The notes: generated by a model from the letters alone, not told the origin. DNA of 32,000 nucleotides from Gemmatimonadaceae bacterium (GCA_036493735.1 DASXPH010000106.1:29110-61109), one strand, 5' to 3'; counted from the first letter of the stretch, positions 9,610 through 29,123 are shown. Numbers and translations are program-made.

Positions 9610-9694
9610 CGAACGGCGCGAAGTCCCGAACGACGCGAAGTCCCGAACGACGGACAATTCGAACTCAGCGCCCTTTGGAACTCAGCGCCGGTCG
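9610..9694. repeat. 17-nt tandem-unit array 1 (3 type-1 units followed by 2 type-2 units).
   Basis: CGAACGGCGCGAAGTCC (9610), CGAACGACGCGAAGTCC (9627), CGAACGACGGACAATTC (9644), then GAACTCAGCGCCCTTTG (9661), GAACTCAGCGCCGGTCG (9678). It lies in the divergent PadR-A/PadR-B intergenic region. Confidence 0.85.
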
Positions 9695-9697
9695 CCT

Positions 9698-9751
9698 TCT
9701 AGTTGACATTCTACCAGAAGGAGCGCATACTCTGGTAGAATGTCAACTAGA
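9698..9751 (+). promoter_or_regulatory. Perfect 21-bp inverted repeat spanning the PadR-B promoter and start codon (candidate operator).
   Basis: TCTAGTTGACATTCTACCAGA (9698-9718), 12-nt spacer AGGAGCGCATAC, then TCTGGTAGAATGTCAACTAGA (9731-9751); 21/21 complementary. TTGACA (9703-9708), 17 nt, CATACT (9726-9731). The PadR-B ATG (9740) lies inside the right arm. Confidence 0.6.
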
Positions 9752-10096
9752 GACGAATCGCAGGCCCTCCTTCAGGGCACCCTCGACCTACTTGTCCTGC
9801 GTGTCCTCGCGCTTGGCTCACACCATGGCCACGGCATCGTCGTCGCCATCCAGTCGCGGTCGGGGCACACCCTCCTCGTGGATCATGGCTCCCTCTACCC
9901 TGCCCTCCAGCGCCTCGAACAGCGCGGCTGGATCAAGGGTGCATGGGGCCTGTCCGACAACAATCGCCGCGCGCGCTTCTACTCCCTCACGGCGCTCGGT
10001 CGAAAACATCTCACGATCGAAACCAGCCGCTGGAATCGACTCGTCGAATCCATTGCCCGAGTCATGGACCCCAATCCCACAACGGAGAACGCCTGA
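9740..10096 (+). CDS. PadR-family transcriptional regulator, 'PadR-B'.
   Basis: MSTRDESQALLQGTLDLLVLRVLALGSHHGHGI...HGSLYPALQRLEQRGWIKGAWGLSDNNRRARFYSLTALGR. The stop overlaps the permease B start (TGATG). Confidence 0.92.
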   Translation: MSTRDESQALLQGTLDLLVLRVLALGSHHGHGIVVAIQSRSGHTLLVDHGSLYPALQRLEQRGWIKGAWGLSDNNRRARFYSLTALGRKHLTIETSRWNRLVESIARVMDPNPTTENA

Positions 10097-12705
10097 TGTT
10101 CGGCCGCCGTTCGCAACGAGACTTCGAGGACGAGATTCGCTCGCACCTCCAAATGGAGATCGAACGCCTCCAGGCACTCGGCATGTCCCGCAGCGACGCC
10201 GAGCGTGCCGCGCGTCGACACTTCGGCAATGTTGGTGTCGCTGAAGACAACTTCTACCACATGAATCGCTTCGCATGGCTCGACGACACCGGCCGCGACT
10301 TGCGACATGCGATGCGCGCGCTGCTACGCACGCCTGGATTTCTGTTCATCACAGTTGTGACGCTGGCACTCGCGATCGGCGCCACCGCCGGCATGTTTGG
10401 CGTCGTCAACACCGTATTGCTCGAGCCACTGCCATTCCCGCATCCGGAGCGGCTTGTCAGCGTCCAGGGTACCGCGCCAGGCACCGATCTAACTCAGCGG
10501 TTCGATCTCGGCCTCGATTTCTACCTGCACTACAAGGAACGCTCGAAGCTCATCGACGGCATTCTCACGTTCAGTAGTGGGACTTCGACCTTCCGCACTG
10601 ACGAACGCGTCGAGCGCATTGAAATGTCATGGGTGACGGACGACATGTACGCGACGCTGGGCGTTCATCCGCAATTGGGACGCGTTCCGGTGCCTGACGA
10701 CGATGGCAACGCCGTCGTCATCAGCGATGAGCTCTGGAACACCTGGTTCGGACGGGACCCATCGGTGATCGGGAAATCCTTTTTCGTGTCGGATACCACG
10801 AAGAAGATCGTCGGCGTGATGCCGCGCGGATTCCATTTTCCGAACGACAACACGCTGCTCTGGATCTCGAACAACGTACGTCTCAAAGATGTACGGCCGG
10901 GCAATTTCGGAATGCCGATCCTCGTGCGCATGAAAGAGGGTGTGAGTCAGGAGCAGTTGGCCGCGGACATGACACGGCTGGCAAAGGAGCTGCCGGCTCG
11001 CTTTGGCGGAGCGCCTAACTACGCGCGGATAATCAAGAGCTACCGCGCGGTCGTCAGCTCCGTGCTCGACCGCATGGTTGGACCAACGCTCAGAACATCG
11101 CTCTGGGTGCTGCTCGGCGCGGTCACGGTGGTGTTGCTCATCGCCTGTGCCAATGTCGCCAACTTGTTCATGGTTCGCGCCGAGTCGCGTCGACGCGACC
11201 TCACGGTGCGTCGTGCGATCGGCGCGTCGCGCGCGCAGCTCGTCCGCTTTCAGATGGCCGAGGCGTCTGTCGTCGCACTCGCGGCTGGCGTGCTCGCGGT
11301 GGTTCTGAGCACGGTTACGCTGCCGCTCTTTGTGCGCGCGGCGCCGCAAGGCATTCCGCGGCTTGGCGAGGTCGGGCTCGATCTGCCGACCATCGCGGTG
11401 ACGTTCGGTCTCGTGATTGTCGTGGCACTTCTGTGCGGCGCCGCGCCGGCGATCCGCGCCTCTTCACCCGACTTGACGGCGCTTCGCGAGGGCGGCCGCG
11501 GCTCCACGCGGGGACGTCGCTGGGGGAGGGACCTGCTCGTCATCGGACAGACGGCGCTCGCGCTGGTGCTGATTATCGGCGCCGCGCTGCTGGTGGAGAG
11601 CTTCCAGCGGCTCCGCCACGTCAATCCTGGCTACGACATCAAGGGTATATACACCTTCCAGTTTGCGCCGCAGCAACCGCAGCTTCGCGATGGACCGTCG
11701 TTAGGCCGGATGCATCTCCTGGTCATGGATCGGTTACGCGCGTTGCCGGGCGTGACGACTGTCGGCGTCGTAAACAACATCCCGCTCGACGAGGGCACGG
11801 ACGGCGTCCGGGTGACCGCGGAGGGAATGCCGAGCGACGGTGGCGGCGCGCCGATCAACATGAACTTCACGGGCGGAGACTATTTCCGCGCCATGGGAAT
11901 CAAGCTGCTGCAGGGGCGCACGTTCACAAACGAAGAAGCCGTGACGCCCAATTCCAATGTCATCATCAGTCGCGCGGCCGGCGAGAAACTCTGGCCCGGT
12001 CAGAATCCACTCGGAAGAAGAATCCGTCCGCGCTTCGGACGTCAGGACACCCTCGCGTTCACGGTCGTCGGTGTCGTGAACGACGTGAAGCAGCTCGATT
12101 GGCGTGAGGCCGGCGACGCAGTGATCTATTTCCCGCTCACGGGTCCGTTCGCTGGTGCTTGGGGAATGGGCTCACCCGCCTATGTCGTCAAGTCGCCGCG
12201 CGCGGAGATGCTGAAGGGCGAGGTGCGACAGATCGTGCACGAGGTTGCGCCCGAAGCGCCGGTGTACCGTGAGTACACCATGGAATTCCTCTCGCGCCGG
12301 TCAATGATCCAGCTTTCGTTCACGATGCTCACGCTCGGCGTGGTGTCTGCGCTCGCACTCATTCTCGGCGCGCTAGGGCTATACGGCGTGCTGTCGTACG
12401 TCGTTGCGCAGCGGACGCGCGAGATCGGCGTGCGCATGGCGCTGGGAGCATCGGCCGGCGCGGTGCGGCGACAGGTGGTTTCCGAGGGCGCGAAGGTCGT
12501 GCTCGTCGGCGTGGCGATCGGCATCGTCGCCGCATTCGCGTCGACACGACTGCTCGGCACGCTCCTGTACGGCGTGAAGGCTGTGGATCCGCTGGTCTTT
12601 GCCGCGATGTCGCTCGTGATGCTTGGCATTGGCGTGCTGGCCAGCTACATGCCCGCCCGCCGCGCCAGCAGTGTGGATCCGATCGAGGCGCTGCGCAGCG
12701 ATTGA
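10096..12705 (+). CDS. ADOP-type duplicated FtsX/MacB permease with N-terminal prefix domain ('permease B').
   Basis: Start moved to ATG 10096 (residue 52 of track ORF 9943..12705). MFGRRSQRDFEDEIRSHLQMEIERLQALGMSRSDAERAARRHFGNV..., then DLRHAMRALLRTPGFLFITVVTLALAIGATAGMF. First FtsX unit [32 protein letters not shown]; second REIGVRMALGAS...YMPARRASSVDPIEALRSD. Confidence 0.92.
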   Translation: MFGRRSQRDFEDEIRSHLQMEIERLQALGMSRSDAERAARRHFGNVGVAEDNFYHMNRFAWLDDTGRDLRHAMRALLRTPGFLFITVVTLALAIGATAGMFGVVNTVLLEPLPFPHPERLVSVQGTAPGTDLTQRFDLGLDFYLHYKERSKLIDGILTFSSGTSTFRTDERVERIEMSWVTDDMYATLGVHPQLGRVPVPDDDGNAVVISDELWNTWFGRDPSVIGKSFFVSDTTKKIVGVMPRGFHFPNDNTLLWISNNVRLKDVRPGNFGMPILVRMKEGVSQEQLAADMTRLAKELPARFGGAPNYARIIKSYRAVVSSVLDRMVGPTLRTSLWVLLGAVTVVLLIACANVANLFMVRAESRRRDLTVRRAIGASRAQLVRFQMAEASVVALAAGVLAVVLSTVTLPLFVRAAPQGIPRLGEVGLDLPTIAVTFGLVIVVALLCGAAPAIRASSPDLTALREGGRGSTRGRRWGRDLLVIGQTALALVLIIGAALLVESFQRLRHVNPGYDIKGIYTFQFAPQQPQLRDGPSLGRMHLLVMDRLRALPGVTTVGVVNNIPLDEGTDGVRVTAEGMPSDGGGAPINMNFTGGDYFRAMGIKLLQGRTFTNEEAVTPNSNVIISRAAGEKLWPGQNPLGRRIRPRFGRQDTLAFTVVGVVNDVKQLDWREAGDAVIYFPLTGPFAGAWGMGSPAYVVKSPRAEMLKGEVRQIVHEVAPEAPVYREYTMEFLSRRSMIQLSFTMLTLGVVSALALILGALGLYGVLSYVVAQRTREIGVRMALGASAGAVRRQVVSEGAKVVLVGVAIGIVAAFASTRLLGTLLYGVKAVDPLVFAAMSLVMLGIGVLASYMPARRASSVDPIEALRSD

Positions 12706-12715
12706 GGAGAGGCGT

Positions 12716-15367
12716 CTACTCTTCGCGCAACGCCAGCACCGGAGCGATCCGGAGCGCCCGACGTGCCGGCACGCTGGTCGCCAAAATCGAGATCACGATC
12801 ATTGTAAGCGTCGCGAAGCTGAAGACACCGAAATCCGCCGGGGGCACCTGGTAGAGCATCGATCCAACGAGCCTCGCCACAGCGACGGATGCAGCGAGGC
12901 CGATTGCTACGCCGACGAACAGCAACCTACCCATCTGCGCCGCGACGACCTGCAACACGTCTCGATGCTGCGCTCCCAGAGCCACACGCACGCCAATTTC
13001 TTTGGTCCGCTGCGTGACGGCATAGCTCACGATCCCGTACAGGCCTATGGCCGCGAGCAGCGACGCGATGAGCGCCAATAGAATCAGAAGCTGCATGGCA
13101 GCATGTTGTCCCTCGAGCGGGCCATCGACATAGGTCTCGAGCGGCATCGCGTTGAAGACGGGTACGCCCGGATCGAGCGCTCGTACGGCCTGCTCGATCG
13201 CTCGCACGGCCTCCGGGACGGCGCCCGCCGTCCGCAGCAGTACGGCGTAACCATACTCTGGCCGATACACCTGTCGTACGGGCACGTAGAAGTACGGCGT
13301 CGGCGCGTCGCTGAGACGATAGAACTTCGTGTCCTTCACGACACCGACGATCGTGAACCAGCGGCCCCACCCGTGCACGCGCACGCCTAACGCGGCACCG
13401 CCGCCGAGGAAGTGCCGCACGAACGCGTCGTTCACGATCATCACCGGCACGTGCGCCGAATCATCGGCGAGGGTGAACTCGCGCCCCGCGACGAGCGGCA
13501 CCCGAAGCACCTTGAAGTAGTCCGGACCAATCGCCGCGCGATAAAGCTTCATGTTCTCGTTCGGCGCTGGCGCATAGCCCTCGACTCGGAGCTCCTCCCA
13601 TGATCCGGCACCGAGACTCAGCGGAACGTAATCCGTGTAGCTGGCCGCCTGGACGCCCGGCTCGTGGGAGAGCCGATCCGCGACGTTGCTGAGAAACGCT
13701 TCGGCGCGTGCGGAGTCGTAGCCGGCGAGCGTCACGCTCACGGAAGCCATCGCGACGTCTTGTGCATCGAAGCCCGGCGACACCGCACGCGTATGGCGAA
13801 AACTCTCGAAGAACAATCCCGCTCCAACGAGCGACACCACGGCCAGTGCCATCTCGAGGGTCACGAGCGTGCGCCGCGCCCGCGCAGCACCGCGGTTGCC
13901 CGCCGTTCCGCGCCCGCCGCTGCTGAGCGCTTCGCCTAACGCGGCACGCGAGCCCTGAAGGGCCGGGACGATCCCAGCGAGCACCGTCACCGCGATTGCG
14001 AGCAAGGCGGTGAACGCCAACACGCTTCGGTCCACGTGCGGCGCGAGCAGGGCCGGTCGCGCAAACGACGGTAGGAGCGAATTGAGCGAACGCGCAAGCC
14101 AGGCCGCACCCAACAGTCCCAGCGTGGCCCCGCTGATCGCGAGAAGGGACGCCTCGGTGAGCAGTTGCCGGATGAGGCGAGCCCGCGGCGCGCCGAGCGC
14201 GAGCCGAAGCCCGAGCTCGCGCGCTCGCGCCGTCGCGCGCGCGAGAAGCAGACTCGCCGCGTTTGCGCAGACGATGAGTAACACCAATCCACAGGCGACG
14301 AGCAGTACCACCAGGGGCTCGCGGAGTGCGTCCTGCGCGCCCCAATGCGATTGCCAGATTGGCATCAGTCGGCCTTCCATCCCCTTGCTGACAGCGCCGT
14401 TCACGCTCGCCATGAACGCGGTGAACGATTCGACTTCGGCGCGCGCGGCATTGAAGTTCACACCATCCCGGAGACGCGCCAGCACGCGGAAGGTTCGCGT
14501 ACCCCGATCGCGGAGCCACCACCCGCCGGTCGGGACGATCTGGCCCAGCATCGCCGCCGGCACCCACACGTCGAACTCCTCGCCCGACATCGAGCCATGA
14601 AAGGCCCGTGATGCGACGCCGACCACCCGAAACGGAAATTGGTTGATGTCGACGACACTGCCGACGACGGAACTGTCGCCGTGCCACCGGCGCTGCCACA
14701 ACTCGTAGCTGATGACGGCGAGTGGCTGCGCCCCCTCGTTCTCCTCGACCGTCGACGGAAAGAAGCCGCCGAGCGCCGGTTGGACGCGCAACACCTCGAA
14801 GAAGTTGGCGGACACGAGCTCGCCCCAGACGCGCTCCGAATGCGCGGCATCGCCTAACGCGAGCGACGTCGGATAGGCGGCCGCGAGCCCGTCGAAGGAT
14901 CTGAGGTATCTCCGAAGATCGCGGTAATCGAGCCAGGACGTTGGCGTCCAGCTGCCGGAAGCGGTCGTCGTCTCGAGCGCGAAGATACGCTCGGGTGCAC
15001 GGGTGCCGGGGAGTGGATCGAGCAAGACGCTCCGTGTCCAACTGAATACGGTCGCCGTCGCCGCAATGCCGATCGCGAGTGTAATGACGATCACCGACGA
15101 CATCGTCGGCACCCGCCGCATCTGTCGGAGCGCGTAACGCACGTCCATCAGGATCGACTCGAGTGTGGGCCACTGCCAGACCGCACGGCCCTCCTCCTGG
15201 ATGTACGTCACGTTCCCGAACGCGCGCCGTGCCTCCGCACGCGCGTCAGCCGGCGAAAGGCCCCGTGCGATCAACGCGTCGGTCTTTTCTTCGAGGTGCG
15301 ACTGCATCTCGCTCGCGAGATCGTCGTAGAGTTGGCGCTGGCGCACCAGGGCATCGAGCCATCTCAT
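12716..15367 (-). CDS. ADOP-type duplicated FtsX/MacB permease with N-terminal prefix domain ('permease C').
   Basis: 883 aa. DDLASEMQSHLEEKTDALIARGLSPADARAEARRAFGNV, then DVRYALRQMRRVPTMSSVIVITLAIGIAATATVF. C-terminus [12 protein letters not shown]...SVPARRALRIAPVLALREE. ATGA overlap with the PadR-C stop. Convergent with permease B, only 10 bp apart. Confidence 0.92.
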   Translation of the reverse strand: MRWLDALVRQRQLYDDLASEMQSHLEEKTDALIARGLSPADARAEARRAFGNVTYIQEEGRAVWQWPTLESILMDVRYALRQMRRVPTMSSVIVITLAIGIAATATVFSWTRSVLLDPLPGTRAPERIFALETTTASGSWTPTSWLDYRDLRRYLRSFDGLAAAYPTSLALGDAAHSERVWGELVSANFFEVLRVQPALGGFFPSTVEENEGAQPLAVISYELWQRRWHGDSSVVGSVVDINQFPFRVVGVASRAFHGSMSGEEFDVWVPAAMLGQIVPTGGWWLRDRGTRTFRVLARLRDGVNFNAARAEVESFTAFMASVNGAVSKGMEGRLMPIWQSHWGAQDALREPLVVLLVACGLVLLIVCANAASLLLARATARARELGLRLALGAPRARLIRQLLTEASLLAISGATLGLLGAAWLARSLNSLLPSFARPALLAPHVDRSVLAFTALLAIAVTVLAGIVPALQGSRAALGEALSSGGRGTAGNRGAARARRTLVTLEMALAVVSLVGAGLFFESFRHTRAVSPGFDAQDVAMASVSVTLAGYDSARAEAFLSNVADRLSHEPGVQAASYTDYVPLSLGAGSWEELRVEGYAPAPNENMKLYRAAIGPDYFKVLRVPLVAGREFTLADDSAHVPVMIVNDAFVRHFLGGGAALGVRVHGWGRWFTIVGVVKDTKFYRLSDAPTPYFYVPVRQVYRPEYGYAVLLRTAGAVPEAVRAIEQAVRALDPGVPVFNAMPLETYVDGPLEGQHAAMQLLILLALIASLLAAIGLYGIVSYAVTQRTKEIGVRVALGAQHRDVLQVVAAQMGRLLFVGVAIGLAASVAVARLVGSMLYQVPPADFGVFSFATLTMIVISILATSVPARRALRIAPVLALREE

Positions 15368-15750
15368 GCCTCACCCCCCAGCGCAAGCACCAGCGTGATG
15401 CCTTCGAGCATCCGTTCGAAACGGGAGATCTCGATCCCCAGATGCTTGGAGCCAGCCCGCGTGATCCGATAGATGCGCACCCGGCGATTGGTCGCCGACA
15501 CTCCCCACTCGGCCTCGACGAGACGCTCCTTCAGCAAACGCTGAAGCGCGGGGTAGAGCGATCCCTCTTCGACTTGCAGGAGATTTTGGGAGGCTTGTTG
15601 GATGCGCTGCACGAGGGCATAGCCGTGCATCGGCTGCCGTTTGAGGAGGCGCAGCACCATGAGCTCGAGCGCCCCGGGGAAAAGGTCGCGCGATTCCGAA
15701 TCAGGCATGACGCGATCGAGAAGCGAGAGTAGTGGCCAGCCGATACCCAT
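15364..15750 (-). CDS. PadR-family transcriptional regulator, 'PadR-C'.
   Basis: ...LFPGALELMVLRLLKRQPMHGYALVQRI...EGSLYPALQRLLKERLVEAEWGVSATNRRVRIYRITRAGS. The start is uncertain: ATG 15750 (track) or ATG 15708 (MPDSESRDLF...), which matches the length of the other PadRs better. Confidence 0.88.
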   Translation of the reverse strand: MGIGWPLLSLLDRVMPDSESRDLFPGALELMVLRLLKRQPMHGYALVQRIQQASQNLLQVEEGSLYPALQRLLKERLVEAEWGVSATNRRVRIYRITRAGSKHLGIEISRFERMLEGITLVLALGGEA

Positions 15751-15751
15751 A

Positions 15752-15806
15752 CCCTGTTCAGCACAAGGCCTAGAGCAGAATAGTATGCGCGTGTGGGCGC
15801 TGTCAA
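15752..15806 (-). promoter_or_regulatory. Candidate PadR-C promoter plus an imperfect palindrome related to the PadR-A operator.
   Basis: On the (-) strand: TTGACA (15806-15801), 15 nt, TACTAT (15785-15780). On the + strand, CCCTGTTCAGCACAAGG (15752-15768) shares CCCT......CACAAGG with the PadR-A palindrome CCCTTGTGACACAAGGG. The 9-mer GCGCATACT around the -10 is also present at the PadR-B promoter. Confidence 0.35.
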
Positions 15807-15983
15807 TCGCGCGGTTACCTGCGAAAGTTGCGAAGCTGACGTGCGGGTGCTAGACTTAGTGAGCGATACACGCCGTTCAACGCGTGGACATGTTCCGATC
15901 GATCAGGGGCCTGCCGAATGCGAGCAGGCCCCTTTTGTTTTCCGGCCAATCGTCGTTCGCCCCTCACTCCAGGAGTTTAGGAT

Positions 15984-16172
15984 ATGCGGACGAGGGCATT
16001 CGACGAGCATCGCGACTCGCCGCTCTGGCGCGCGCTGGAGGAGGTCGTCGCCGAATTGGTCGCGACACAGGAAATCACGATCAACACGGCGCCGGAGTAT
16101 GTGATCGGGTATCTCTGTCGCGAATTGATGGCGAAGCGAATGGTGTCAGCTGGCGCATCAGAAACCTCCTAG
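15984..16172 (+). CDS. Small hypothetical protein (62 aa).
   Basis: AGGAG lies 8 nt upstream of the ATG. GC-rich third codon positions. The sequence looks like a real protein (MRTRAFDEHRDSPLWRALEEVVAELVATQEITINTAPEYVIGYLCRELMAK...), unlike the Arg-rich overlapping frame of 15884..16234. Confidence 0.45.
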   Translation: MRTRAFDEHRDSPLWRALEEVVAELVATQEITINTAPEYVIGYLCRELMAKRMVSAGASETS

Positions 16173-16234
16173 CCGCCGGCCGCTCCGCGGCCGTTCACGT
16201 TAGGCAGATGATGTTTCCCGTTCCGAGGTTCCTC

Positions 16235-16663
16235 ATGCATTCGAAGACGATTCTCATGGTTCAATCGGGCAATGATTCCCTTTCACGTCTTCGCATGCGG
16301 CTGGAGGACCTAGGGTATACGATCGTCCAGGCCGCTGACGCGGCAACCGCCATGGACATCGCCAACCGCTCCGAAATTGCGCTTGTCGTGACGGAGTTAT
16401 ATCTCCGCCTCGGCACATGCCGCTGTCTCGGTCGTGTCATTGGCAGGTCGCCGGCGCTCCGACGCACCAAGCTGCTCGCGTACACAGCACACGGAAAGCG
16501 AAGAGATCGCGACTGGGCACAACGCATCGGCGCCGATGGATACGTGATCAGCCGTTCCGGCGATGAGCGTTTTCTCTCCGTCGTCGACCATCTGATGACC
16601 GCTCGGTCGAGACCGCGTCGCTATTGGGACGATGATGCGATTCACCAGAGCCGCCGAACATAG
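16235..16663 (+). CDS. Stand-alone receiver (REC)-like protein with degenerate phospho-acceptor residues (pseudo-receiver).
   Basis: Start moved to ATG 16235, with GAGG 6 nt upstream. Alternating beta/alpha pattern of CheY-like receivers: KTILMVQSGND (DD pocket replaced by QS), ALVVTELYL (Asp replaced by Glu), LLAYTAH (Thr kept), GADGYVISRS (Lys missing). Confidence 0.6.
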   Translation: MHSKTILMVQSGNDSLSRLRMRLEDLGYTIVQAADAATAMDIANRSEIALVVTELYLRLGTCRCLGRVIGRSPALRRTKLLAYTAHGKRRDRDWAQRIGADGYVISRSGDERFLSVVDHLMTARSRPRRYWDDDAIHQSRRT

Positions 16664-16677
16664 CTGTGCATCTTCCG

Positions 16678-16935
16678 ATGAAGACCGTCGTCTGGATCGT
16701 CCTCCTGGTCGTGCTCACTGGTGTGGGCGTCGCGTACCTGACAGCCTGGATGAGGCGAATCGCGACCTCTCCCGCGGAGCCGCCGGCGCCACGACCAGAT
16801 GAGGTGTCAGCGGACGCCGGCGCCGATGAGCTGAGGCATGAGCTCATGACCACGTCCGAGGGTACCAGGCTCCTGCTCAGGCAAGGACACCTGATCGCGC
16901 CCGTCGACAGCACGCGAAAGGAATCCAGCGGCTGA
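16678..16935 (+). CDS. Small single-pass membrane protein, hypothetical.
   Basis: MKTVVWIVLLVVLTGVGVAYLTAWM is a TM helix, followed by a Pro/Ala/acidic tail. Alternative GTG start at 16666. Support is weak. Confidence 0.4.
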   Translation: MKTVVWIVLLVVLTGVGVAYLTAWMRRIATSPAEPPAPRPDEVSADAGADELRHELMTTSEGTRLLLRQGHLIAPVDSTRKESSG

Positions 16936-18163: not shown

Positions 18164-18210
18164 CGGGGAGCGCTTCGTGCTGTCGATCAGTAGTTGATCG
18201 TCAAACCGTC

Positions 18211-22200: not shown

Positions 22201-22244
22201 ACTTGGGCGGACGTGACATACGATGTCGTCGTCGCGCAACTCGC

Positions 22245-22589
22245 TCACCGCACGAGTTGCAGCGTCCCCGTCAACGCGTCGATCGCGGCGTCATTCGCCG
22301 GCCCTATTCCGAGACACGTTGCCGTGCCGGGAGCAACCACCGTGCGTCCTGCATCGCGGATCAAGTCCGCAGGCAGTGCGGCGGCGATCGCCTGACGCTC
22401 CAGCTCCAGTAGCTGCGTCTCGTCGTCAACGCGGAGCACGACCTTGGGCATGCCCTCTTCGAGCCATTGGCGGAGATCATCGTGCGCACGGACAGCGAGT
22501 AGCGCCGAGACCGATGCATGCGCGACCTGTGCTGCGAGCTTGCCGCGCGGGAGCCGCAGCGCTTCGTTGACGATAATGACCTGTTTCAT
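22245..22589 (-). CDS. pth2: Peptidyl-tRNA hydrolase, PTH2 (archaeal/eukaryotic-type) family.
   Basis: 114 aa. MKQVIIVNEALRLPRGKLAAQVAHASV...GMPKVVLRV...IRDAGRTVVAPGTATCLGIGP...TGTLQL matches the conserved blocks of PTH2. Confidence 0.85.
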   Translation of the reverse strand: MKQVIIVNEALRLPRGKLAAQVAHASVSALLAVRAHDDLRQWLEEGMPKVVLRVDDETQLLELERQAIAAALPADLIRDAGRTVVAPGTATCLGIGPANDAAIDALTGTLQLVR

Positions 22590-22600
22590 GAAGGGAAATT

Positions 22601-22733
22601 GAACGGCGCCGCCCGCCGTTTGGAACTCAGCGCTGTTTGGGACCGGGCGCCGTTTGGAAGTCAGCGCCGTTTGGAAGTCAGCGCCGTTTGGAAGTCAGCG
22701 CCGTTCGGAACTTCGCGCCCTTCCTAGTTTCGC
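22601..22733. repeat. 17-nt tandem-unit array 3 (a vestigial type-1 end followed by about 7 type-2 units, 3 of them identical).
   Basis: GAACGGCGCC (22601), then GCCGTTTGGAACTCAGC (22615), GCTGTTTGGGACCGGGC (22632), GCCGTTTGGAAGTCAGC three times (22649, 22666, 22683), GCCGTTCGGAACTTCGC (22700) and the degenerate GCCCTTCCTAGTTTCGC (22717). It lies between the pth2 start and the PadR-D promoter. Confidence 0.9.
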
Positions 22734-22759
22734 GGATGACAGGGTCCCGACCACCATTT

Positions 22760-22810
22760 CCTTGACATTCTAGGGAATCCCCATATCATGTCCTAGACAT
22801 TCTTGGGAAT
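22760..22810 (+). promoter_or_regulatory. PadR-D promoter with two direct operator-like boxes 32 bp apart.
   Basis: TTGACA (22762-22767), 16 nt, TATCAT (22784-22789). Boxes are CCTTGACATTCTAGGGAAT (22760-22778) and CCTAGACATTCTTGGGAAT (22792-22810), 17/19 identical. Each contains an ATTC-N4-GAAT mini-palindrome. The 11-mer TTGACATTCTA is identical to the PadR-B operator arm. Confidence 0.55.
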
Positions 22811-22814
22811 GATC

Positions 22815-23159
22815 ATGCCTGCCTCCGCGGTCGACGTTCTTCAGGGTACCCTCGACGTGCTCGTGCTCAAGGCGCTCTCGTGGGGCCCGCGACACGGCCA
22901 CGGCGTCGCCCGCGTCATCCGCGACACCACGTCCGGCACGCTCGACGTCACCGACGGCTCGCTCTACGTCGCCCTGCACCGCCTCGAGGAGCGCGGCCTC
23001 ATCGAGAGCGAATGGGGGCTCTCCGACAAGGGCAAGCGTGCCCGCTTCTACGAGCTCACCGCCGCCGGACGCCAGCAGCTCAAGAGCGAGATCGCGGCGT
23101 GGCAGCGCTACGCGCAGTCAGTCACCCGACTGCTCACCGCCACTGCCCAGCCGGCCTAA
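22815..23159 (+). CDS. PadR-family transcriptional regulator, 'PadR-D'.
   Basis: [35 protein letters not shown]...[40 protein letters not shown]. Alternative in-frame starts at 22803 (TTG) and 22809 (ATG). The stop is 2 nt before the permease D ATG. Confidence 0.9.
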
Positions 23160-23161
23160 CG

Positions 23162-25831
23162 ATGCCGTCGCCGAGGTGGCGCAGGTACCTCCGCTTCTGG
23201 CGGAGCGACGTCGACGGCGACCTCGATGAGGAATTCCGCTTTCACGTGGATGCCGAAGCGGAATACCTCGTCGCGCGCGGCTGGTCGGCTGAGGCGGCGC
23301 GCGACGAAGCGCTTCGGCTGTTCGGAGATGTCGACGCGTTCCGACGGGACGCCCGCGCCGCGGACGAACGTCGCATGGGGCGCGCCCAGCGCAAGGAGAA
23401 TCTCGCCGTGCTGCTACAAGACCTTCGCTTCGCCCTTCGCTCCCTGCGCCGCCAGCCGGCGTTCACCGCGATCGCCGTCATCACTCTTGCGTTGGGCATC
23501 GGCGCCAACACAGCGATCTTCAGCGTCGTCAACGGCGTGATGCTTAAGCCCCTTCCCTATCGCGAGCCGAAGCAGCTCGTGATGCTGTGGGAGACGATGC
23601 CGGGCGGCGACCGTCCACTCCTCTCCTATCCGAACTACCTGGACTGGCGCCAGCGGCAGCGCGGCTTCGAGGACATCGCGGTCTACAATCCCTTTCCCGG
23701 GTTCACCATGACGGGACAGGGCGATGCGGCGGACATCAACGGCTCGCTGGTGACGGGAAACTATCTCCAGCTCCTGGGCTTGCACCCGGCGCTCGGGCGG
23801 CTGATCGCGGCGAGGGACGATTCGTTAGGCGCCGCGCCCGTCGTCGTCCTCCGCTATGGCTTCTTCCAATCACATTTTGGCGGCGATCCATCGGTGATCG
23901 GCCGCACGCTGCTGCTCGATAACGTCGCGTATACCGTCATCGGCGTGCTGTCACCGGACGCGCGCGTCTCCTACCGCGCGGGCGACGCTGATCCCGACGT
24001 CGTCCTACCACTCGGGCTCTTCGTGAAGGAACCTATGTACAACCGGACAAGTCCCGTTCTCTTCGGAGTCGGGCGTCTCAAGCCCGGTGTCAGCCTCGAG
24101 CGCGCGCTGGCCGACTTGCAGCGGGTGAGTGCCGAGTTGCGCGCTGAGTATCCAAAAGAGAACGCCGGGGTCGGCGCGGGCGGCGCGCCGATGATGGACA
24201 TGGTAGTGAAGTTCATCAAGCCGGCGCTCAGGATCATGACGGTCGCGGTGGCGCTCGTGCTGCTGATCGCGTGCGCCAACGTCGCCAACCTCGTGCTCTC
24301 GCGGTCCACGGCGCGTCGGCGCGAGTTCGCTGTGCGTACGGCACTCGGCGCGGACCGCGGTCGTATCGTGCGCCAGGTGCTGACGGAGAGCGTTGTGCTC
24401 GCGCTCGCGGGCGGCGTGCTCGGCGTCGGCATCGCGGTGCTCGGCGTGAAGCTGCTCCCCGTCGGGATGGATCCGCGCGGGGTGCCGCGCTTCGCGGAAA
24501 TCACCGTGAATCAGACCGCGTTGCTGTTCGCGATTGCAGTGTCGGTACTCACGGGCGTGCTGTTCGGTCTCGCCCCCGCGATCCACTCAGGAAACACACA
24601 GCTCGTGAACGGGCTCAAAGAGGGTGGCCGCGGAACGAGCGGTGCATCGAAGCAGCGGACGCAGGCTATCCTGACGATTGCGGAAGTGGCGCTTGCCGCC
24701 GTGCTGCTGACAGCATCCGGATTGCTCGTGCGCAGCTTCGTCAAGCTGACCGCGGTCGACCCCGGATTCCAGCCGGCGCACGTCGTCGGCGCTGTCTTGC
24801 AGCTATCATCGGGCAAGTACCCCAATGCCGGTCGGGCGCGCGGGGCGCTGGACGAGTTGCTCGCCAAGGTGCGCGCGATTCCAGGATTGGAGAGCGCAAC
24901 GATGGGCTCGAGCACGCCGATCAGCCCACACTCGGAGTCGGCGGTGTCCTTCGAGTCACGTCCCGAGCCCGACGCGAGCAAGTTGCCGCGGCTGAACACC
25001 GCGGTGGTGGAACCGAACTACTTCGAGACGTTGCGGATCACGCTCACGAAAGGCAGAGCGTTCACGCCATCGGACGCAGCCGGCCAACCACAGGTCGCCG
25101 TAATCAGCGAGCGCGTGGCGAGGAAGTTCTTTCGGAAGACCAATCCGATCGGTGCGCGGCTCAAGCTCGGTCAGGCAGACGATACGAGTGCATGGCGCAC
25201 GGTCGTTGGCGTCGTGAAGGAGACGCGAACGGACGGGCTGAACGAGGCTCCCCACGGCACCGTGTATCTTCCGCGCGCACAGGAGGAGATGCGCGGCGGG
25301 TGGCTCATGGTTCGCAGCACGCTGCCCACCGAAGAGATCGCGCGGCTGCTGCGCGAAAGTCTCCGCGCAGTGGACCGTGACGTCCCGCTGGCGTTCGTGC
25401 AAACGATGGATGCCGCGCTCGACGAGGAGTTGCAGCACCCGAAGTCCTCGATGCTGCTGCTGGCGCTCCTCGCGGCGGTGGCACTCGCGCTGGCGTCGGT
25501 GGGCATCTACGGCGTGATCTCGTACAACGTCACGCAGCGCACGACCGAGATCGGGGTGCGCGTCGCGCTTGGCGCGCAGCGCCGCGACGTCGTGGCGCTG
25601 GTGGTGGGCCAGGCAATGACGATGGCCGCTGTCGGCGTCGGCATCGGGGTGCTGCTGGCGCTCTGGGCGGGCAAGGGTCTCAGCAGGATGTTGTTCGGAG
25701 TGGGGCCGCACGATCCGCTGGCCCTGGGAGGCGCGAGCGTGTTCCTGCTCGTCGTCGCGCTGGTCGCCGCGCTGGCGCCGGCATTGCGTGCGTCACGCAT
25801 CGATCCCACGATCGCGATGCGCGCAGACTAA
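23162..25831 (+). CDS. ADOP-type duplicated FtsX/MacB permease with N-terminal prefix domain ('permease D').
   Basis: Start moved to ATG 23162 (residue 95 of track ORF 22880..25831). [57 protein letters not shown]..., then [35 protein letters not shown]. Two FtsX units. C-terminus [12 protein letters not shown]...[14 protein letters not shown]. Confidence 0.92.
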
Positions 25832-25834: not shown

Positions 25835-25915
25835 CGCTGAAATTCCCAAACGGCGCGAAGTTCCGCCGTTTGGAAGTCAGCGAAGTCGGGCACTCCGCGC
25901 CGTTTGGACCTCTGC
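25835..25915. repeat. 17-nt tandem-unit array 4 (degenerate type-1 units followed by type-2 units), including a 10-bp stem hairpin just after the permease D stop.
   Basis: CGCTGAAATTCCCAAAC, GGCGCGAAGTTCC, then GCCGTTTGGAAGTCAGC (25865), GAAGTCGGGCACTCCGC (25882), GCCGTTTGGACCTCTGC (25899). Hairpin: CCAAACGGCG (25846-25855), 8-nt loop, CGCCGTTTGG (25864-25873). No U-tract follows it. Confidence 0.8.
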
Positions 25916-25963
25916 GACTTTCGCCCCCAGGCTCCAAACCCTTCGAACGCCGCGGTTGTCTTA

Positions 25964-25982
25964 CCTTCAGACCATCTGAAGG
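25964..25982 (+). promoter_or_regulatory. Palindrome CCTTCAGA-N3-TCTGAAGG abutting the PadR-E ribosome-binding site (candidate operator).
   Basis: 8-bp perfect arms at 25964-25971 and 25975-25982, followed directly by AAGGAG (25983-25988) and the GTG start at 25994. I could not find a convincing -35/-10 pair. Confidence 0.35.
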
Positions 25983-25993
25983 AAGGAGATCCC

Positions 25994-26350
25994 GTGGCCG
26001 ATGACCGTACCGAGCTCCTCCAGGGCACACTGGAGATGCTCGTGCTCCGTACCCTCGCGCTGGAGCCGATGCACGGTTGGGGCATCGCCCACCGCATCAC
26101 CCACATGTCCCGCGACGCCTTTCTCGTCACCCAGGGTTCGCTCTATCCCGCCCTCGTTCGCATGAAGCGGCGAGGTTGGGTGAAGTCGAGCTGGCGCAAG
26201 ACGGAGAACAGTCGACGCGCCCGATACTACGAGCTCACCGCCGCTGGACAGCAGCAGCTCGAGGCCGAGCGCGCGGTGTGGGCGCGCGCGTCCGCCGCGG
26301 TCGAGAGCGTCCTCAGTCCACGCTGGACCATCGCGAGCCTTGCCATATGA
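25994..26350 (+). CDS. PadR-family transcriptional regulator, 'PadR-E'.
   Basis: Start moved to GTG 25994, with AAGGAG 5 nt upstream. (M)ADDRTELLQGTLEMLVLRTLALEPMHGWGIAHRI...QGSLYPALVRMKRRGWVKSSWRKTENSRRARYYELTAAGQ. ATGA overlap with the permease E start. Confidence 0.9.
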   Translation: MADDRTELLQGTLEMLVLRTLALEPMHGWGIAHRITHMSRDAFLVTQGSLYPALVRMKRRGWVKSSWRKTENSRRARYYELTAAGQQQLEAERAVWARASAAVESVLSPRWTIASLAI

Positions 26351-28992
26351 GCATTCTCTCAGATATCGCCGAGCGCGTTCGCGCCCTACTCTTCCACTCA
26401 CGCGACGAACGCGAGCTCGAGGAAGAGCTTCGTACGCACATGGCAATGGAAGCCGAGTATCTACGGCGCACGGGCGCTTCCGAGCAACACGCGCGTCGCG
26501 CGAGCGCGATCGCGCTGGGCGGCGTCGAGCGTGTCAAGGACGATGTGCGCGATGCCCGGGGCACCCGCTTCCTGCACGACGTCTGGCGCGACATCGGCTT
26601 CGCCGTACGGACGCTCGCCGCCAATCCCGGCTTCACGCTCGTGACGCTGGCGACGCTCGCCATCGGCATCGGTGGAACTACGGCAGTGTTCAGCGCCGTC
26701 GACGCCGTGCTGCTCCAACCGTTGCCGTACGCCCAGCCTGGCCAGCTCGTTCGCCTCTACCAACATCGGGACGACCAGCCTAACGACCGCAGCGTCGTGA
26801 CACCCGTGCACTTCGTCGAGATTCGCCGTCGCATGACCGCGTTCGCCGCGACCGCCGCGCTCAACCTCTACTCCGAGAGCGGCGCCGATATCGGCTCGGG
26901 CGATCAGGTGCAAAGAATCCGCACGATCGCCACGACCGTCGACTACTTCGACGTCCTCCACGTTCACCCGGAGATGGGTCGCGGGTTCACACCCGACCAG
27001 GAGATCGGCGCCGACGTCGCGGTCATCAGCCATGACCTCTGGCGCGAGCGGCTCGGCGGCGATCGCAACGCGATCGGTCGAACGCTCATGATGAACGGAC
27101 GTCCCGTCACGATCATCGGCATCATGCCTAACGGCTTCCGCGATCCGCTCGTCGGCCGCGTCGACGCGCTCGTGCCGCTCGATCTCCGCCCCGCGCTCGA
27201 TCCGAGCAACGCCGGCAACTTCTATCTCAGCGTGGTCGCGCGGCTGCGCCCCGGGACCACGATCCAGCGCGCGCAGGCGGAGCTCGATGCAGTCAATCTC
27301 GCCATCGCCGAGAAGTATGCCCAGGCGAAGCGGATGCGCGCGAGCATCTACTCGCTCAAGGAAGACATCGTCGGCCCTTCTACGCGTGCGCTGACGCTGA
27401 TGCTCGGCGCCGTGCTGCTCGTCCTCGTTCTCGTTTGCGTGAACGTCGCTAACCTGATGCTGGTGCGCGGCTCGGATCGCGCGCACGAGCTCGCGATCCG
27501 TGTCGCGTTAGGCGCCGAGCGGTGGCGATTGGTGCGTCAGATGCTCATCGAGAGCCTGACGTTGGCGATCGTCGGCGCGGTGGCGGGGCTGGTCGTGGCG
27601 CGAGTCGCGATGTCGGCGATTGTCGCGCTCGGCGCCAATACCATTCCGCGACTGACGTCCCTGACGCTGAATCCGCGACTGCTCGCGTTCTCCTTCGTCG
27701 TCGCGACGATCAGCGCTGTGGGCTTCGGGCTCGCGCCGGCGATGCGCGCCTCTCGCACCCAGCCAACCGACGCGTTGCGTGAGCAGAGCCGCGGCTCGAC
27801 GGGTGGCGCCCGGAACCTCCGGCTGCGTGAATGGCTCGTCATTTCGCAGGTCGCGCTGGCGTTCATGTTGCTCGTCGGCGCGGGGCTGTTGATCTCGAGT
27901 CTCGACCGCCTGCAGCACGTGGACCTCGGCGTGAAGACCGCGAACGTGCTGACGTTCGACCTGAACCTGCCCGACGCGCGCTACGACTCGACCGCGCGCG
28001 GTGTGACCTACGAGCGTGTCGCGCGAGCTCTCGAGGCGCTGCCCGGCGTGCGCGCGGCCGGCGGCGTGTCGAAGCTGCCGGCGACGGGACAGTTCAACAC
28101 CTGGGGCGCTCACCCGCTCAGCGGACCGCTCGCGGGCGAGCAGAACCTCTGGCCGAGCGACGAGAATCGCGTCGTCTCGGGCGACTACTTCAAGGCGGTC
28201 GGCATCCCGATCGTGCGCGGCCGCGCGTTCGACGATCGCGACGTGCCGGGTGCGCCGCCGACGATGATCATCACGCAGTCGCTCGCCGACAAGATTTTTC
28301 CCGGCGTCGATCCGATTGGACAGAGCCTAACGACTGGCGGCCGTCGTGGCACCGTCGTCGGCATCGCTGGCGAAACATCGGTCACGAATGAGGGCACCGC
28401 GGGCATGTTCGTCTATCACCCGCACCGGCAGTTCGCGGGCGATCGCAACTGGGCGCTCACGCAGGTCGTGGCGCTGAACGGGTCCTCCGGTCAGACCGGC
28501 GCGATTCAGCGGTCGGTGCGTTCCGCGATCGCGTCGATCGATCCGCTGCTGGTCATGTACAAGCCCGCGACGCTCGATGAAGCCGTCGGGCGTGGAGCCG
28601 CTCAGCGCGTGTTCACGTTGCGGATTCTCGGCGCGTTCGCGGTCGTCGCGCTGATTCTCGCCGCGCTCGGGCTCTTCGGTGTGTTGTCGTATGGCGTTCG
28701 ACTGCGCGGCCGGGAGTTCGGCATTCGCATGGCGCTCGGCGCGCAGCCGGCGGGCATTCGCGTCATGGTGCTCCGCCAGGGATTGATCGTGAGCGGCATC
28801 GGGATCGCCGTCGGCGTGGCATTCGCCGCCGGTCTCTCACGCTTCATGCGATCGATGCTGTTCGAGGTGAGCCCGCTCAACCCCATCGTGTTTGGCGGCG
28901 CGGTGGGGTTCATGATCGTCATCGCGGCGATGTCGGCCTATCTGCCGGCGCACCGCGCGACGTCAACGGATCCGCGGACTGCACTTCAGTAG
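26347..28992 (+). CDS. ADOP-type duplicated FtsX/MacB permease with N-terminal prefix domain ('permease E').
   Basis: Start moved to ATG 26347 (residue 91 of track ORF 26077..28992). MSILSDIAERVRALLFHSRDERELEEELRTHMAMEAEYLRRTGASEQHARRASAIALGGV..., then RDIGFAVRTLAANPGFTLVTLATLAIGIGGTTAVF. Two FtsX units. C-terminus REFGIRMALGAQ...YLPAHRATSTDPRTALQ. Confidence 0.92.
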   Translation: MSILSDIAERVRALLFHSRDERELEEELRTHMAMEAEYLRRTGASEQHARRASAIALGGVERVKDDVRDARGTRFLHDVWRDIGFAVRTLAANPGFTLVTLATLAIGIGGTTAVFSAVDAVLLQPLPYAQPGQLVRLYQHRDDQPNDRSVVTPVHFVEIRRRMTAFAATAALNLYSESGADIGSGDQVQRIRTIATTVDYFDVLHVHPEMGRGFTPDQEIGADVAVISHDLWRERLGGDRNAIGRTLMMNGRPVTIIGIMPNGFRDPLVGRVDALVPLDLRPALDPSNAGNFYLSVVARLRPGTTIQRAQAELDAVNLAIAEKYAQAKRMRASIYSLKEDIVGPSTRALTLMLGAVLLVLVLVCVNVANLMLVRGSDRAHELAIRVALGAERWRLVRQMLIESLTLAIVGAVAGLVVARVAMSAIVALGANTIPRLTSLTLNPRLLAFSFVVATISAVGFGLAPAMRASRTQPTDALREQSRGSTGGARNLRLREWLVISQVALAFMLLVGAGLLISSLDRLQHVDLGVKTANVLTFDLNLPDARYDSTARGVTYERVARALEALPGVRAAGGVSKLPATGQFNTWGAHPLSGPLAGEQNLWPSDENRVVSGDYFKAVGIPIVRGRAFDDRDVPGAPPTMIITQSLADKIFPGVDPIGQSLTTGGRRGTVVGIAGETSVTNEGTAGMFVYHPHRQFAGDRNWALTQVVALNGSSGQTGAIQRSVRSAIASIDPLLVMYKPATLDEAVGRGAAQRVFTLRILGAFAVVALILAALGLFGVLSYGVRLRGREFGIRMALGAQPAGIRVMVLRQGLIVSGIGIAVGVAFAAGLSRFMRSMLFEVSPLNPIVFGGAVGFMIVIAAMSAYLPAHRATSTDPRTALQ

Positions 28993-29001
28993 ACGACCAA
29001 C

Positions 29002-29123
29002 GGCGCAAAGTCCCAAACGGCGCGACGTCCCAAACGGCGCGAGGTCCCAAACGACGCGAGGTGCCGAACGGCGCGGAGTCCTAACGGCGCTCTTCGGCAT
29101 TTTCGCGCTGTTTGGGACCTCGC
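29002..29123. repeat. 17-nt tandem-unit array 5 (5-6 type-1 units followed by 1 type-2 unit).
   Basis: GGCGCAAAGTCCCAAAC (29002), GGCGCGACGTCCCAAAC (29019), GGCGCGAGGTCCCAAAC (29036), GACGCGAGGTGCCGAAC (29053), GGCGCGGAGTCCTAAC (29070), a degenerate unit, then GCTGTTTGGGACCTCGC (29107). That last unit is perfectly complementary over 16 nt to the unit at 29036. The array lies downstream of the permease E stop. Confidence 0.9.

Follow-up and report, generated by a model that had tools for sequence, protein, structure and literature searches.

Inverted arrays of 17-nt units in a Gemmatimonadaceae genome as probable gene-less relatives of a PF05635 cassette

Five intergenic arrays of 17-nt units, far above chance expectation, were found in the window (the whole 32-kb stretch of DNA that was analysed). 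The best explanation is that they are probably short, gene-less and partly decayed copies of a dispersed Gemmatimonadaceae element, the full form of which is a cassette whose arms may act as an RNA stem. The architecture of this cassette, a four-helix-bundle gene between two inverted arms of tandem units, and its relationship to gene-less deletion derivatives were shown in relatives of the window arrays. The assignment of the window arrays themselves to this family, and as derivatives within it, is made from their sequence and is very probably correct.

Layout and folding of the window arrays

The units were mapped by a degenerate scan, those in the GGCGC..AAC orientation being labelled F and their reverse complements R. 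Matches to the type-1 consensus GGCGCGANGTCCCRAAC at three or fewer mismatches numbered 12, against 2.24 +/- 1.57 in shuffles (none of 100 reached this number), and those to the type-2 consensus GCCGTTTGGAASTCAGC numbered 11, against 0.20 +/- 0.45. All lay inside four of the five arrays, bar the type-2 matches at 25865 and 25899, which belong to array 4, and Tandem Repeats Finder returned period-17 arrays at 9610-9652, 18473-18510, 18533-18565, 22614-22712 and 28999-29090.

None of the five arrays is assigned to a strand. Array 1 (9610-9694) is of the form F2-R2, with F units at 9615-9631 and 9632-9648, a short apex, and R units at 9656-9672 (degenerate) and 9673-9689; it lies between divergent PadR-ADOP operons, with a TTGACA box at 9703, 9 nt downstream. 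Array 2 (18473-18583; F2-R3) has F units at 18473-18489 and 18490-18506 plus one degenerate unit, and R units at 18515-18531 (degenerate), 18532-18548 and 18549-18565, followed by a degenerate tail to about 18583. It is located between the convergent genes of a histidine kinase (17000-18163, plus strand) and a beta-lactamase-like protein (18576-20039, minus strand), and its degenerate end abuts the stop codon of the latter. Array 3 (22601-22733), between pth2 (22245-22589, minus strand) and the promoter of a PadR-ADOP operon (TTGACA at 22762), is one-armed (R6 only, R units at 22618-22719), its left arm being reduced to a remnant, GAACGGCGC, at 22601-22614; the three identical units noted at 22649-22699 were confirmed. 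Array 4 (25835-25918) is short and degenerate, F1-R3 in the unit map, with one or two F units (25836-25851, degenerate, and 25852-25868) and R units at 25868, 25885 (degenerate) and 25902; it begins 4 nt past the stop of an ADOP gene ending at 25831 and is upstream of the next PadR gene (ORF 25904-26350). Array 5 (29002-29143), 10 nt past the stop of an ADOP gene ending at 28992, is F5-R1 with additional degenerate R units, and consists of an F arm at 29002-29085, the fifth unit of which is 16 nt, an apex at 29086-29109 and an R unit at 29110-29126 with degenerate units on both sides. No four-helix-bundle gene lies inside or beside any of the five.

RNA folds of arrays 1, 2, 4 and 5 were single long imperfect hairpins, as anticipated in the original prediction, with z-scores of -1.4 to -6.3 against shuffles: -46.3 kcal/mol for array 1 (minus strand, z = -3.2), z of about -2.9 on both strands for array 2, -46.9 kcal/mol for array 4 (minus strand, z = -4.6) and -82.8 kcal/mol for array 5 (plus strand, z = -6.3). 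The anticipation failed for the one-armed array 3, which folded no better than shuffles (z = +0.5 and -1.2). A perfect 16-nt pairing proposed within array 5 does exist, at 29037-29052 with 29110-29125, the right side being about 3 nt away from where it had been placed. Single 17-nt units folded at 0 and -0.2 kcal/mol, equal to shuffles, and are not palindromic. The view that the arrays belong to a genuine repeat family, dispersed between genes and able to form hairpins, is supported, and the statement that they are not CRISPR also stands, since the units are contiguous, without spacers, and no cas genes occur in the window.

The observation that type-1 units always precede type-2 units is largely not one of polarity, because the F-then-R order of an inverted repeat reads alike on both strands. 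True polarity resides in the subtype difference alone (..GTCCC.. on the left, ..GGAAsTCAGC on the right), which in the window is not significant by itself (p ~0.06-0.12, with 4-5 informative arrays). It did not prove general: other elements lacked the subtype asymmetry or showed it the other way round, and one MAG contig carried two elements in opposite orientation.

Dispersed relatives, gene-bearing cassettes and gene-less derivatives

A search with a 1.5-unit pattern returned 56 genome loci, of which 53 belong to 10 Gemmatimonadaceae MAGs. Gemmatimonadaceae also supply the named best homologs of the M28 peptidase encoded in the window, so that the host is a soil bacterium of this family and an acidobacterial origin is not supported. 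The same units therefore recur outside the window, as had been foreseen, in at least 10 MAGs of this family, and the arrays are not a local duplication artefact. In four relatives with an M28 peptidase 83-94% identical, no arrays were found in ~43 kb, against five in the 32 kb of the window. The repeat family is dispersed and multi-copy within genomes, and its abundance is lineage-specific. Every element with both arms showed the order F-arm, loop, R-arm, the modal element being F5-13/23 nt-R5, typically with five units per arm, and the unit consisted of an invariant core and a variable segment of 4-5 nt. The neighbours of the arrays were protein-coding genes throughout, and Rfam searches of the window and of six representative elements were negative for rRNA and for every other RNA family.

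PadR-ADOP permease modules adjoin four of the five window arrays, and the arrays could be envisaged as host regulatory or architectural elements of these modules, acting as operators, insulators or terminators. A gene-bearing element (L058) directly upstream of a PadR-ADOP operon is in keeping with this, as is the finding that ~16% of the MAG arrays (9 of the 57 at MAG loci, within 400 bp) adjoin such genes when PadR/ADOP matches make up 5.5% of the DNA of these loci. We nevertheless find this hardly credible, and the proposed linkage to the modules was lost in the wider sample, given that 84% of the MAG arrays lie elsewhere, that a related contig has a PadR-ADOP-ADOP cluster without an array, that array structure is different at each module, and that the PadR promoters own separate palindromes (e.g. 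9699-9751). A terminator role, also suggested originally, is not supported: the arrays lack a U-tract, and arrays 1 and 3 are each followed closely by the -35 box (TTGACA) of a PadR operon. Within the arrays, the one terminator-like match was a stem of 5 bp (22601-22614) on the left margin of array 3, and terminator-like sites were no commoner than in shuffles.

At three MAG loci (L052, L033 and L019) a gene was present between the arms, and it matched PF05635 ('23S rRNA intervening-sequence protein') at 3e-16 to 3e-18 and TIGR02436 at 2e-17. The full cassette comprises ~5-8 direct 16-17-nt units (core AACGGCGC...YCC), a leader of ~110 nt, a gene of ~110 aa and the array inverted. A reverse test, started from protein homologs with subsequent inspection of their flanks, recovered F9/R10 (P0013), F18/R4 (P0063), F8/R7 (P0094) and 16-nt units repeated 12.6 and 10.5 times (P0096). 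When 35 full-length relatives of the gene, each with 300 nt or more of flanking sequence to either side, were collected from a metagenome scan, 33 carried 15-18-nt tandem arrays on both sides and 30 displayed a significant inverted match between the two flanks; the period was 16 or 17 in 113 of 133 metagenomic arrays, with a median of 5.8 copies per arm and a range of 2 to 18. The four-helix-bundle gene is under purifying selection (median dN/dS 0.21), and no sigma-70-like promoter or Shine-Dalgarno sequence was evident for it. Its neighbours in the contexts examined were unrelated housekeeping or transport genes, with no reverse transcriptase or template/variable repeat pair among them, and PADLOC defence models gave no match. 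We found no published description of this arrangement of a gene with inverted arrays. The more distant homologs L158/L159 were flanked by heptamer arrays.

MAG SMAG_U6106 has gene-less copies of ~400 bp that match its own gene-bearing element, L052, over ~190-210 bp at either end. On the 931-nt L052 segment, the alignments of these mid-size elements cover positions 2-209 and 729-925 and leave out the ORF. Gene-less loci outnumbered gene-bearing ones by ~14:1, 13:1 and 5:1 in three MAGs, and a graded series was apparent, from ~400-bp gene-less elements with both ends, through ~180-bp pure hairpins (F5-loop-R5), to remnants like those in the window, as internal deletions in cassettes would yield. 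As the mid-size copies keep both ends of the gene-bearing element, the window arrays are very probably decayed MITE-like derivatives; since none of them has or adjoins a four-helix-bundle gene, this derivation is based on the identity of the units and on the graded series in other genomes. The elements are like MITEs in their terminal inverted repeats, in gene-less copies with both ends and in a high genome-specific copy number. MITE parents, however, encode a transposase, whereas the parent element here encodes the four-helix-bundle protein only, and in place of the defined termini and target-site duplication of MITEs we observed ragged arrays with variable unit numbers and no recognisable duplication.

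Copy number changes by one-unit steps. Exactly one 17-nt F unit of array 2 is absent from a 99.8% identical JGI contig (L001), confirming that copy number differs among near-identical sequences, and among L062-L071 the spacing between the gene and its next neighbour differs by multiples of 16 nt. Each arm is homogenised independently, with units alike within an arm (0.70) and without register-specific pairing between arms. No conserved flanking target-site duplication was present in 28 aligned ends, and neither an empty orthologous site nor a mobility enzyme was found among the sequences compared, so that transposition is at most a candidate mode of spread.

The arrays had been likened to REP/BIME elements, and as REPIN-like repeats they could be mobilised in trans by a RAYT (Y1 HUH) encoded elsewhere, with the four-helix-bundle gene as a passenger. 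This would account for arrays that are intergenic, multi-copy, inverted, hairpin-forming, variable in abundance between lineages and near gene ends, and REP/BIME/REPIN systems are alike in comprising lineage-specific families with many gene-less and few gene-bracketing copies. Such membership is very unlikely, however, because REP units are individually imperfect palindromes (~20-40 nt), whereas the units here are non-palindromic with a strict tandem periodicity of 16-17 nt. A repeat-bracketed gene is the mark of RAYTs in REPIN systems, but in place of a Y1 transposase the gene systematically bracketed here is PF05635 in 33 of 35 cases, and it encodes a protein without known catalytic activity. 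No Y1/RAYT transposase is encoded in the window and, in a weak test, tblastn with an IS200 TnpA query gave no match in 742 kb of array-flanking DNA.

Possible roles of the inverted arms

By analogy with rRNA intervening sequences (IVS), an IVS-like RNA stem is the most likely role of the arms, ahead of the rival in which they are binding arrays for the encoded protein, and we put forward the underlying RNase III mechanism tentatively. The two arms would pair in read-through transcripts to give a long imperfect stem, and RNase III may process this stem, excising or insulating the insert, so that the element would be tolerated between genes and beside gene ends. Pairing between tandem arms would tolerate register shifts and be readily restored by slippage. 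The window copies would have no dedicated host function and could at most disturb neighbouring transcripts or promoters. Contrary to this model, the arms are only ~70% complementary, array 3 is single-armed, and arrays 1 and 3, being upstream of promoters, may not be transcribed. In gene-less hairpins there was no compensatory signal between the arms, mirrored units matching at variable positions at 0.55, against 0.52-0.58 for out-of-register units and 0.52 for other elements, and stem energies of sense and antisense strands revealed no consistent strand preference.

Alternatively, the arrays could serve as binding platforms on double-stranded DNA, where a multimeric protein would occupy each 16-17-bp unit as a single site; the most plausible candidate is the four-helix-bundle protein encoded by the element, relatives of which form homopentamers in crystals. 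Like the subterminal repeats of some transposons, the inverted arrays would then mark the ends of the element, or they would organise a complex of DNA and protein, and the protein would act in trans on gene-less copies as orphan sites. We consider this rather unlikely, although the invariant core and variable segment of the unit, the homogenisation within arms without register-specific pairing, the purifying selection on the gene, and the location of some arrays upstream of promoters, which does not readily fit a role as RNA, are all consistent with it. The two arms of an element share their unit: similarity between the unit upstream of the gene and the reverse complement of the downstream one is 0.84 within a locus and 0.60 between loci. 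Units diverge fast between elements, tracking protein identity (Spearman 0.28, p = 1e-28). These results also speak for the cassette family, and shared descent alone would likewise predict such co-divergence. Also in favour of binding are the typical 5-6 units per arm, the five chains deposited for each of the PDB relatives 2RLD and 2GSC, and the description of XCC0516 as a homopentamer (PMC4990558). Against this, copies per arm vary so widely that there is no fixed stoichiometry, and a 17-bp spacing is out of helical phase. Members of PF05635 are not known to bind a specific DNA sequence, and Avd, the best-studied one, acts with a reverse transcriptase and RNA.

Comparison with intervening sequences and other repeat systems

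The RNA-stem reading draws on the 23S rRNA IVS with an S23p/PF05635 ORF (Leptospira, Coxiella burnetii, Brucella), which likewise have a gene of this family in the loop between inverted repeats that form a long stem. In the Coxiella IVS, which RNase III excises, terminal inverted repeats enclose an S23p-family ORF with variable tandem heptamers upstream of it, and IVS with S23p ORFs are viewed as selfish elements that move by an unknown mechanism (PMC4990558). A corresponding stem is seen here in the F-arm/R-arm order, in the folds (to z = -6.3) and in the inverted flanks of the gene-bearing loci, and an ORF occupies the loop in the full-length relatives, whereas the five window copies are ORF-less. 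IVS, however, sit in 23S (or 16S) rRNA helices, are cut out of the precursor rRNA and have a unique 28-bp stem, whereas the elements here lie between protein-coding genes, have arms of tandem 16-17-nt units of up to ~300 bp and, unlike IVS, have numerous gene-less derivatives spread within genomes.

PF05635 genes with inverted 16-17-nt arrays could also constitute an unrecognised class of autonomous selfish element with no canonical transposase, recombinase or reverse transcriptase, in which the pentameric protein would recognise its own units, as DNA or RNA, and promote copying, maintenance or processing, with gene-less hairpins as non-autonomous satellites. We regard this as doubtful; if true, classical rRNA intervening sequences would be only the members that chanced into rRNA, and the heptamers of L158/L159 and of the Coxiella IVS suggest that such a principle may reach beyond Gemmatimonadaceae. 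Avd of diversity-generating retroelements is alike in its PF05635 family and in having pentameric four-helix-bundle relatives working with nucleic acid, but the adjacent reverse transcriptase and template/variable repeat pair of those systems were absent here. The TAACTGA heptamer repeats of Beggiatoaceae and Cyanobacteria also form intergenic tandem arrays of variable copy number with a genome-wide spread; they are 7-nt direct repeats, indirect in just one of 170 sets, and are not reported to embed a gene (PMC4679880), whereas the elements described here have a period of 16-17 nt, obligately inverted arms and an associated gene.

Period-17 arrays in the window and in other genomes

Contiguous 17-nt units were visible directly in the sequence at all five places where arrays had been predicted (arrays 1-5, delimited here as 9610-9694, 18473-18583, 22601-22733, 25835-25918 and 29002-29143), and Tandem Repeats Finder reported period-17 arrays at 9610-9652, 18473-18510, 18533-18565, 22614-22712 and 28999-29090. 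Both unit types of the original prediction proved to be real: type 1, which begins with GGCGCGA, gave 12 matches at no more than 3 mismatches against 2.2 expected, a count that no shuffle attained, and type 2, which ends in GGAAsTCAGC, gave 11 matches in the window against 0.2 expected, again reached by no shuffle. A degenerate unit covering both types (F, GGCGCKRNSTYCCRAAC; R, its reverse complement) was used to scan for units, and arrays 1-5 read F2-R2, F2-R3, R6, F1-R3 and F5-R1, respectively, in units per arm, plus degenerate units. The expected folding into single long imperfect hairpins was found for arrays 1, 2, 4 and 5 (z = -1.4 to -6.3) but not for array 3, whose left arm is lost and whose fold is no better than those of its shuffles.

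All five arrays are intergenic, as had been stated, among genes that include five PadR-ADOP modules, pth2, an M28 peptidase, a beta-lactamase-like gene, histidine kinases and others ('ADOP' and 'padR_acidobact' are family names only). Arrays 4 and 5 begin 4 and 10 nt past stop codons, and the right ends of arrays 1 and 3 lie just 5' of the TTGACA boxes of PadR operons; at only a few nt from stop codons and -35 boxes, the arrays could change expression of adjacent genes. Inside the arrays there were no sigma-70 promoters and no intrinsic terminators; the one exception, a terminator-like stem of 5 bp on the left edge of array 3, was not above chance. No Rfam family was matched at the gathering threshold in the window or in six representative elements.

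The units recur outside the window. When one genome per GTDB species was scanned with a 1.5-unit pattern, 56 loci were recovered, 53 of them in ten Gemmatimonadaceae MAGs; the named best homologs of the window M28 peptidase also come from Gemmatimonadaceae, and the host of the window is accordingly a member of this family. Viral contigs scanned with the unit pattern held no array and one single match, which arose by chance. Since four contigs of relatives with an 83-94% identical M28 peptidase (~43 kb) carry no arrays at all, the family is lineage-specific in abundance. One of these array-free contigs carries a PadR-ADOP-ADOP cluster, and of the 57 MAG arrays, only 9 are at most 400 bp away from a PadR or ADOP gene. 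The array family is thus no component of the permease modules.

In the MAGs, every two-armed element has the order F-arm, loop, R-arm. The commonest form consists of five units, a 13- or 23-nt loop made of one or two copies of ACGACGTTTA, and five further units, ~183 bp in total. Composite arms were seen in L003, L005, L024 and other loci of MAGs SMAG_U6106 and LS_FP_2_bin.53. These have one to six outer 16-nt units (GGCGCAAACAACTAAC) followed by five inner 17-nt units, mirrored on the opposite side, and hence hold at least two unit kinds in fixed order. In MAG ERR14722431_metabat2_25 (L006 2840-3070, L042 1000-1230, L045 380-480), inverted copies of GTCATCCTGAGCG(C/A)AGCGAAGGA lie between the arms, in the place of the core present in other MAGs, and this motif may be another nested repeat family.

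A four-helix-bundle gene between the arms

In a number of MAG elements the arms stand 240-700 bp apart, and in three different MAGs (L052, L033, L019) this space holds an ORF of ~110 aa. The ORF matches PF05635 (23S rRNA intervening-sequence protein) and TIGR02436 (four helix bundle protein), and the nearest solved structures of its product are 2RLD and 2GSC, both deposited with five chains. A reverse test was begun from the protein rather than from the repeats, by inspecting the contigs of homologs at 55-85% identity. Three distinct homolog genes were found with 17-nt-pattern F and R arrays alongside (F9/R10, F18/R4 and F8/R7), and a fourth had another unit, 16 nt long, on its two sides in inverted orientation (12.6 and 10.5 copies).

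A metagenome scan with the protein alignment yielded 80 loci; 35 of these had a full-length gene with 300 nt or more on either side and were kept. Tandem arrays were present on each side of the gene at 33 of the 35 loci, and upstream and downstream flanks gave significant inverted matches at 30. The base period was 16 or 17 in 113 of 133 arrays, with a median of 5.8 copies per arm (range 2-18); the upstream array lies a median of 114 nt from the start codon, and the downstream array a median of 55 nt from the stop codon. Thus one large clade of four-helix-bundle genes stands almost always between inverted tandem arrays. Unit sequences vary widely among loci, with only GGCGC/AGCGC as a common core. 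The upstream unit and the reverse complement of the downstream unit nevertheless agreed at 0.84 within a locus against 0.60 between loci, and higher protein identity went with higher unit similarity, so that units and protein diverge together. Purifying selection acts on the gene (median dN/dS 0.21).

Ahead of the start codon, the upstream array is followed by a conserved leader of ~60-100 nt (L058 2426-2500, L084 1400-1500 and relatives). It contains ...TCACACATGCATGCGATTCATGATGCG...GCGGCAATTTGCCGCCATG, with a small hairpin adjoining the ATG, and no Shine-Dalgarno sequence or clear sigma-70 promoter was found in it. PADLOC defence models gave no match, and tblastn with the four-helix-bundle protein gave none in PLSDB plasmids. 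The gene is absent from the window. The window units GAAGTCCC (left) and GGAAsTCAGC (right) closely resemble those of the gene-bearing locus L084, in which the gene is preceded by type-1 units and closely followed by type-2 units. The window arrays, short or one-armed, can be read as decayed gene-less copies of the cassette family.

Gene-less copies, copy number and arm structure

Gene-less derivatives have multiplied in some genomes. The ~400-bp gene-less elements of SMAG_U6106 align to ~190-210 bp at both ends of the gene-bearing L052 but leave its ORF unmatched, and their cores share 80-91% mutual identity across different loci. Gene-less loci outnumber gene-bearing ones by ~14:1, 13:1 and 5:1 in three MAGs, and the strictness of the search pattern makes these ratios minimum values.

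Copy number was found to vary even between almost identical sequences. The JGI soil-metagenome contig Ga0376682_0000392 (L001), which encodes a window protein, matches the window at 99.8% identity over 12.85 kb (window 12228-25079) and differs from it in length only by a single 17-nt unit of array 2. L001 ends at window position 25079, so that the window derives from another assembly of this population. At one gene-bearing locus followed across samples, arm lengths were F5+, F7+ and F18, in whole-unit steps, with multiples of 16 nt also seen. Such polymorphism between near-identical strains could make array lengths VNTR-like strain markers. Contigs L004, L013, L034, L044, L082, L095 and others end inside or right at an array, and most contigs with the four-helix-bundle gene are only 1-3 kb; with arrays so often at contig ends, they probably break short-read metagenome assemblies.

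Neighbouring genes were not conserved in relatives of the window M28 peptidase (83-94% identity) or of the amidohydrolase from L062 (88% and 67%), and neither set yielded an empty orthologous site, a presence/absence allele or a target-site duplication. Gene order was not kept around the M28 peptidase (83-94%) or amidohydrolase (88%) orthologs in L075-L079, L160 and L161; either Gemmatimonadaceae neighbourhoods would be reshuffled unusually fast, or these genes would be paralogs.

In gene-less hairpins, agreement at variable positions was 0.70 within an arm and 0.55 between mirrored units of opposite arms, against 0.52-0.58 for out-of-register units and 0.52 for unrelated elements. This mirror test gave no sign of unit-by-unit compensatory pairing between arms. 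Because agreement is high within arms and mirrored units reach only the out-of-register level, each arm is homogenised separately, by slippage or unequal exchange, and the stem potential derives from the conserved core. Neither strand was consistently favoured by sense and antisense stem energies. Subtype composition differed between arms (0.283 against 0.204 in permutations, 11 of 2000 of which reached 0.283), in a direction inconsistent across the family. As far as sequence can tell, the arm data are compatible both with an RNA-stem role and with one protein recognising both arms.

The claimed order 'type 1 before type 2' is common to all five window arrays (chance ~1 in 16) but is not family-wide. 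Since F-then-R order is identical on either strand, it is mostly what any inverted repeat would give. The asymmetry also occurs in the gene-bearing loci L084 and L072 and is absent from L081, L085 and others; among MAG hairpins the left arm was richer in the type-2-like subtype in 12, the right in 9 and neither in 10, and one MAG contig of 342 kb carries two mid-size elements in opposite orientation. The polarity is thus best taken for an asymmetry that descends from a master copy, and not for a family-wide or replication-linked rule.

Comparison with known elements and other repeats in the window

A REP/BIME identity, the likeness suggested originally, did not hold. The elements do resemble REPIN/MITE systems in having many non-autonomous hairpins and few gene-bearing copies. 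However, the tests that define such systems failed: the unit is not palindromic, no RAYT or transposase was found, and an alignment of 28 element ends, in which the outer units are ragged (GGCGCAAACAACTAAC x1-6), showed no target-site duplication. A tblastn search of 742 kb with IS200 TnpA as the query, a weak test, gave no match. We agree that the arrays are not CRISPR arrays, although repeat finders could take them for CRISPR or REP elements; the elements were also judged not to be DGRs.

Among described systems, the closest are the rRNA intervening sequences of Leptospira and Coxiella, in which an S23p/PF05635 ORF lies in the loop of a stem formed by terminal inverted repeats and which RNase III excises (PMC4990558). 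These have long been suspected of mobility, for which the ORF is possibly required, and those of Coxiella carry variable tandem heptamers upstream of the ORF (PMC4990558). In contrast, the elements described here are free-standing between protein genes, have long tandem arrays as arms, and gave rise to gene-less families. We found no prior description in the literature of these Gemmatimonadaceae repeats or of array-flanked four-helix-bundle genes. We conclude that the window arrays are the gene-less fringe of an undescribed cassette family centred on the 'intervening-sequence protein', an assignment that is well supported; as to mechanism, we infer an IVS-like RNA stem or a protein-binding array. 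The finding bears on the role of the rRNA intervening-sequence 'S23p' ORF, a question since the early 1990s, and equally on that of the many four-helix-bundle genes that are annotated as free-standing in bacteria.

Inverted tandem arrays of another kind, with a 7-nt period, occur at 834-951 and 20139-20253, where (GCGTTGA)n is followed by (TCAACGC-like)n and each site forms a hairpin of heptamer repeats. Heptamer arrays also lie alongside the distant four-helix-bundle homologs of L158/L159 (34% identity), and by analogy with these and with the Coxiella intervening sequences, the window heptamers may be remnants, without a gene, of a sister family of elements. The stretch 9699-9751 contains a perfect inverted repeat of 20 nt (CTAGTTGACATTCTACCAGA ... 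TCTGGTAGAATGTCAACTAG). This repeat has the TTGACA box within it and overlaps the start codon of a PadR gene (ATG at 9740), and is probably the actual PadR operator/promoter, separate from the 17-nt arrays. On the opposite side of array 1, in the region 9550-9605, GACACAAGGG occurs twice, at 9560 and 9594.
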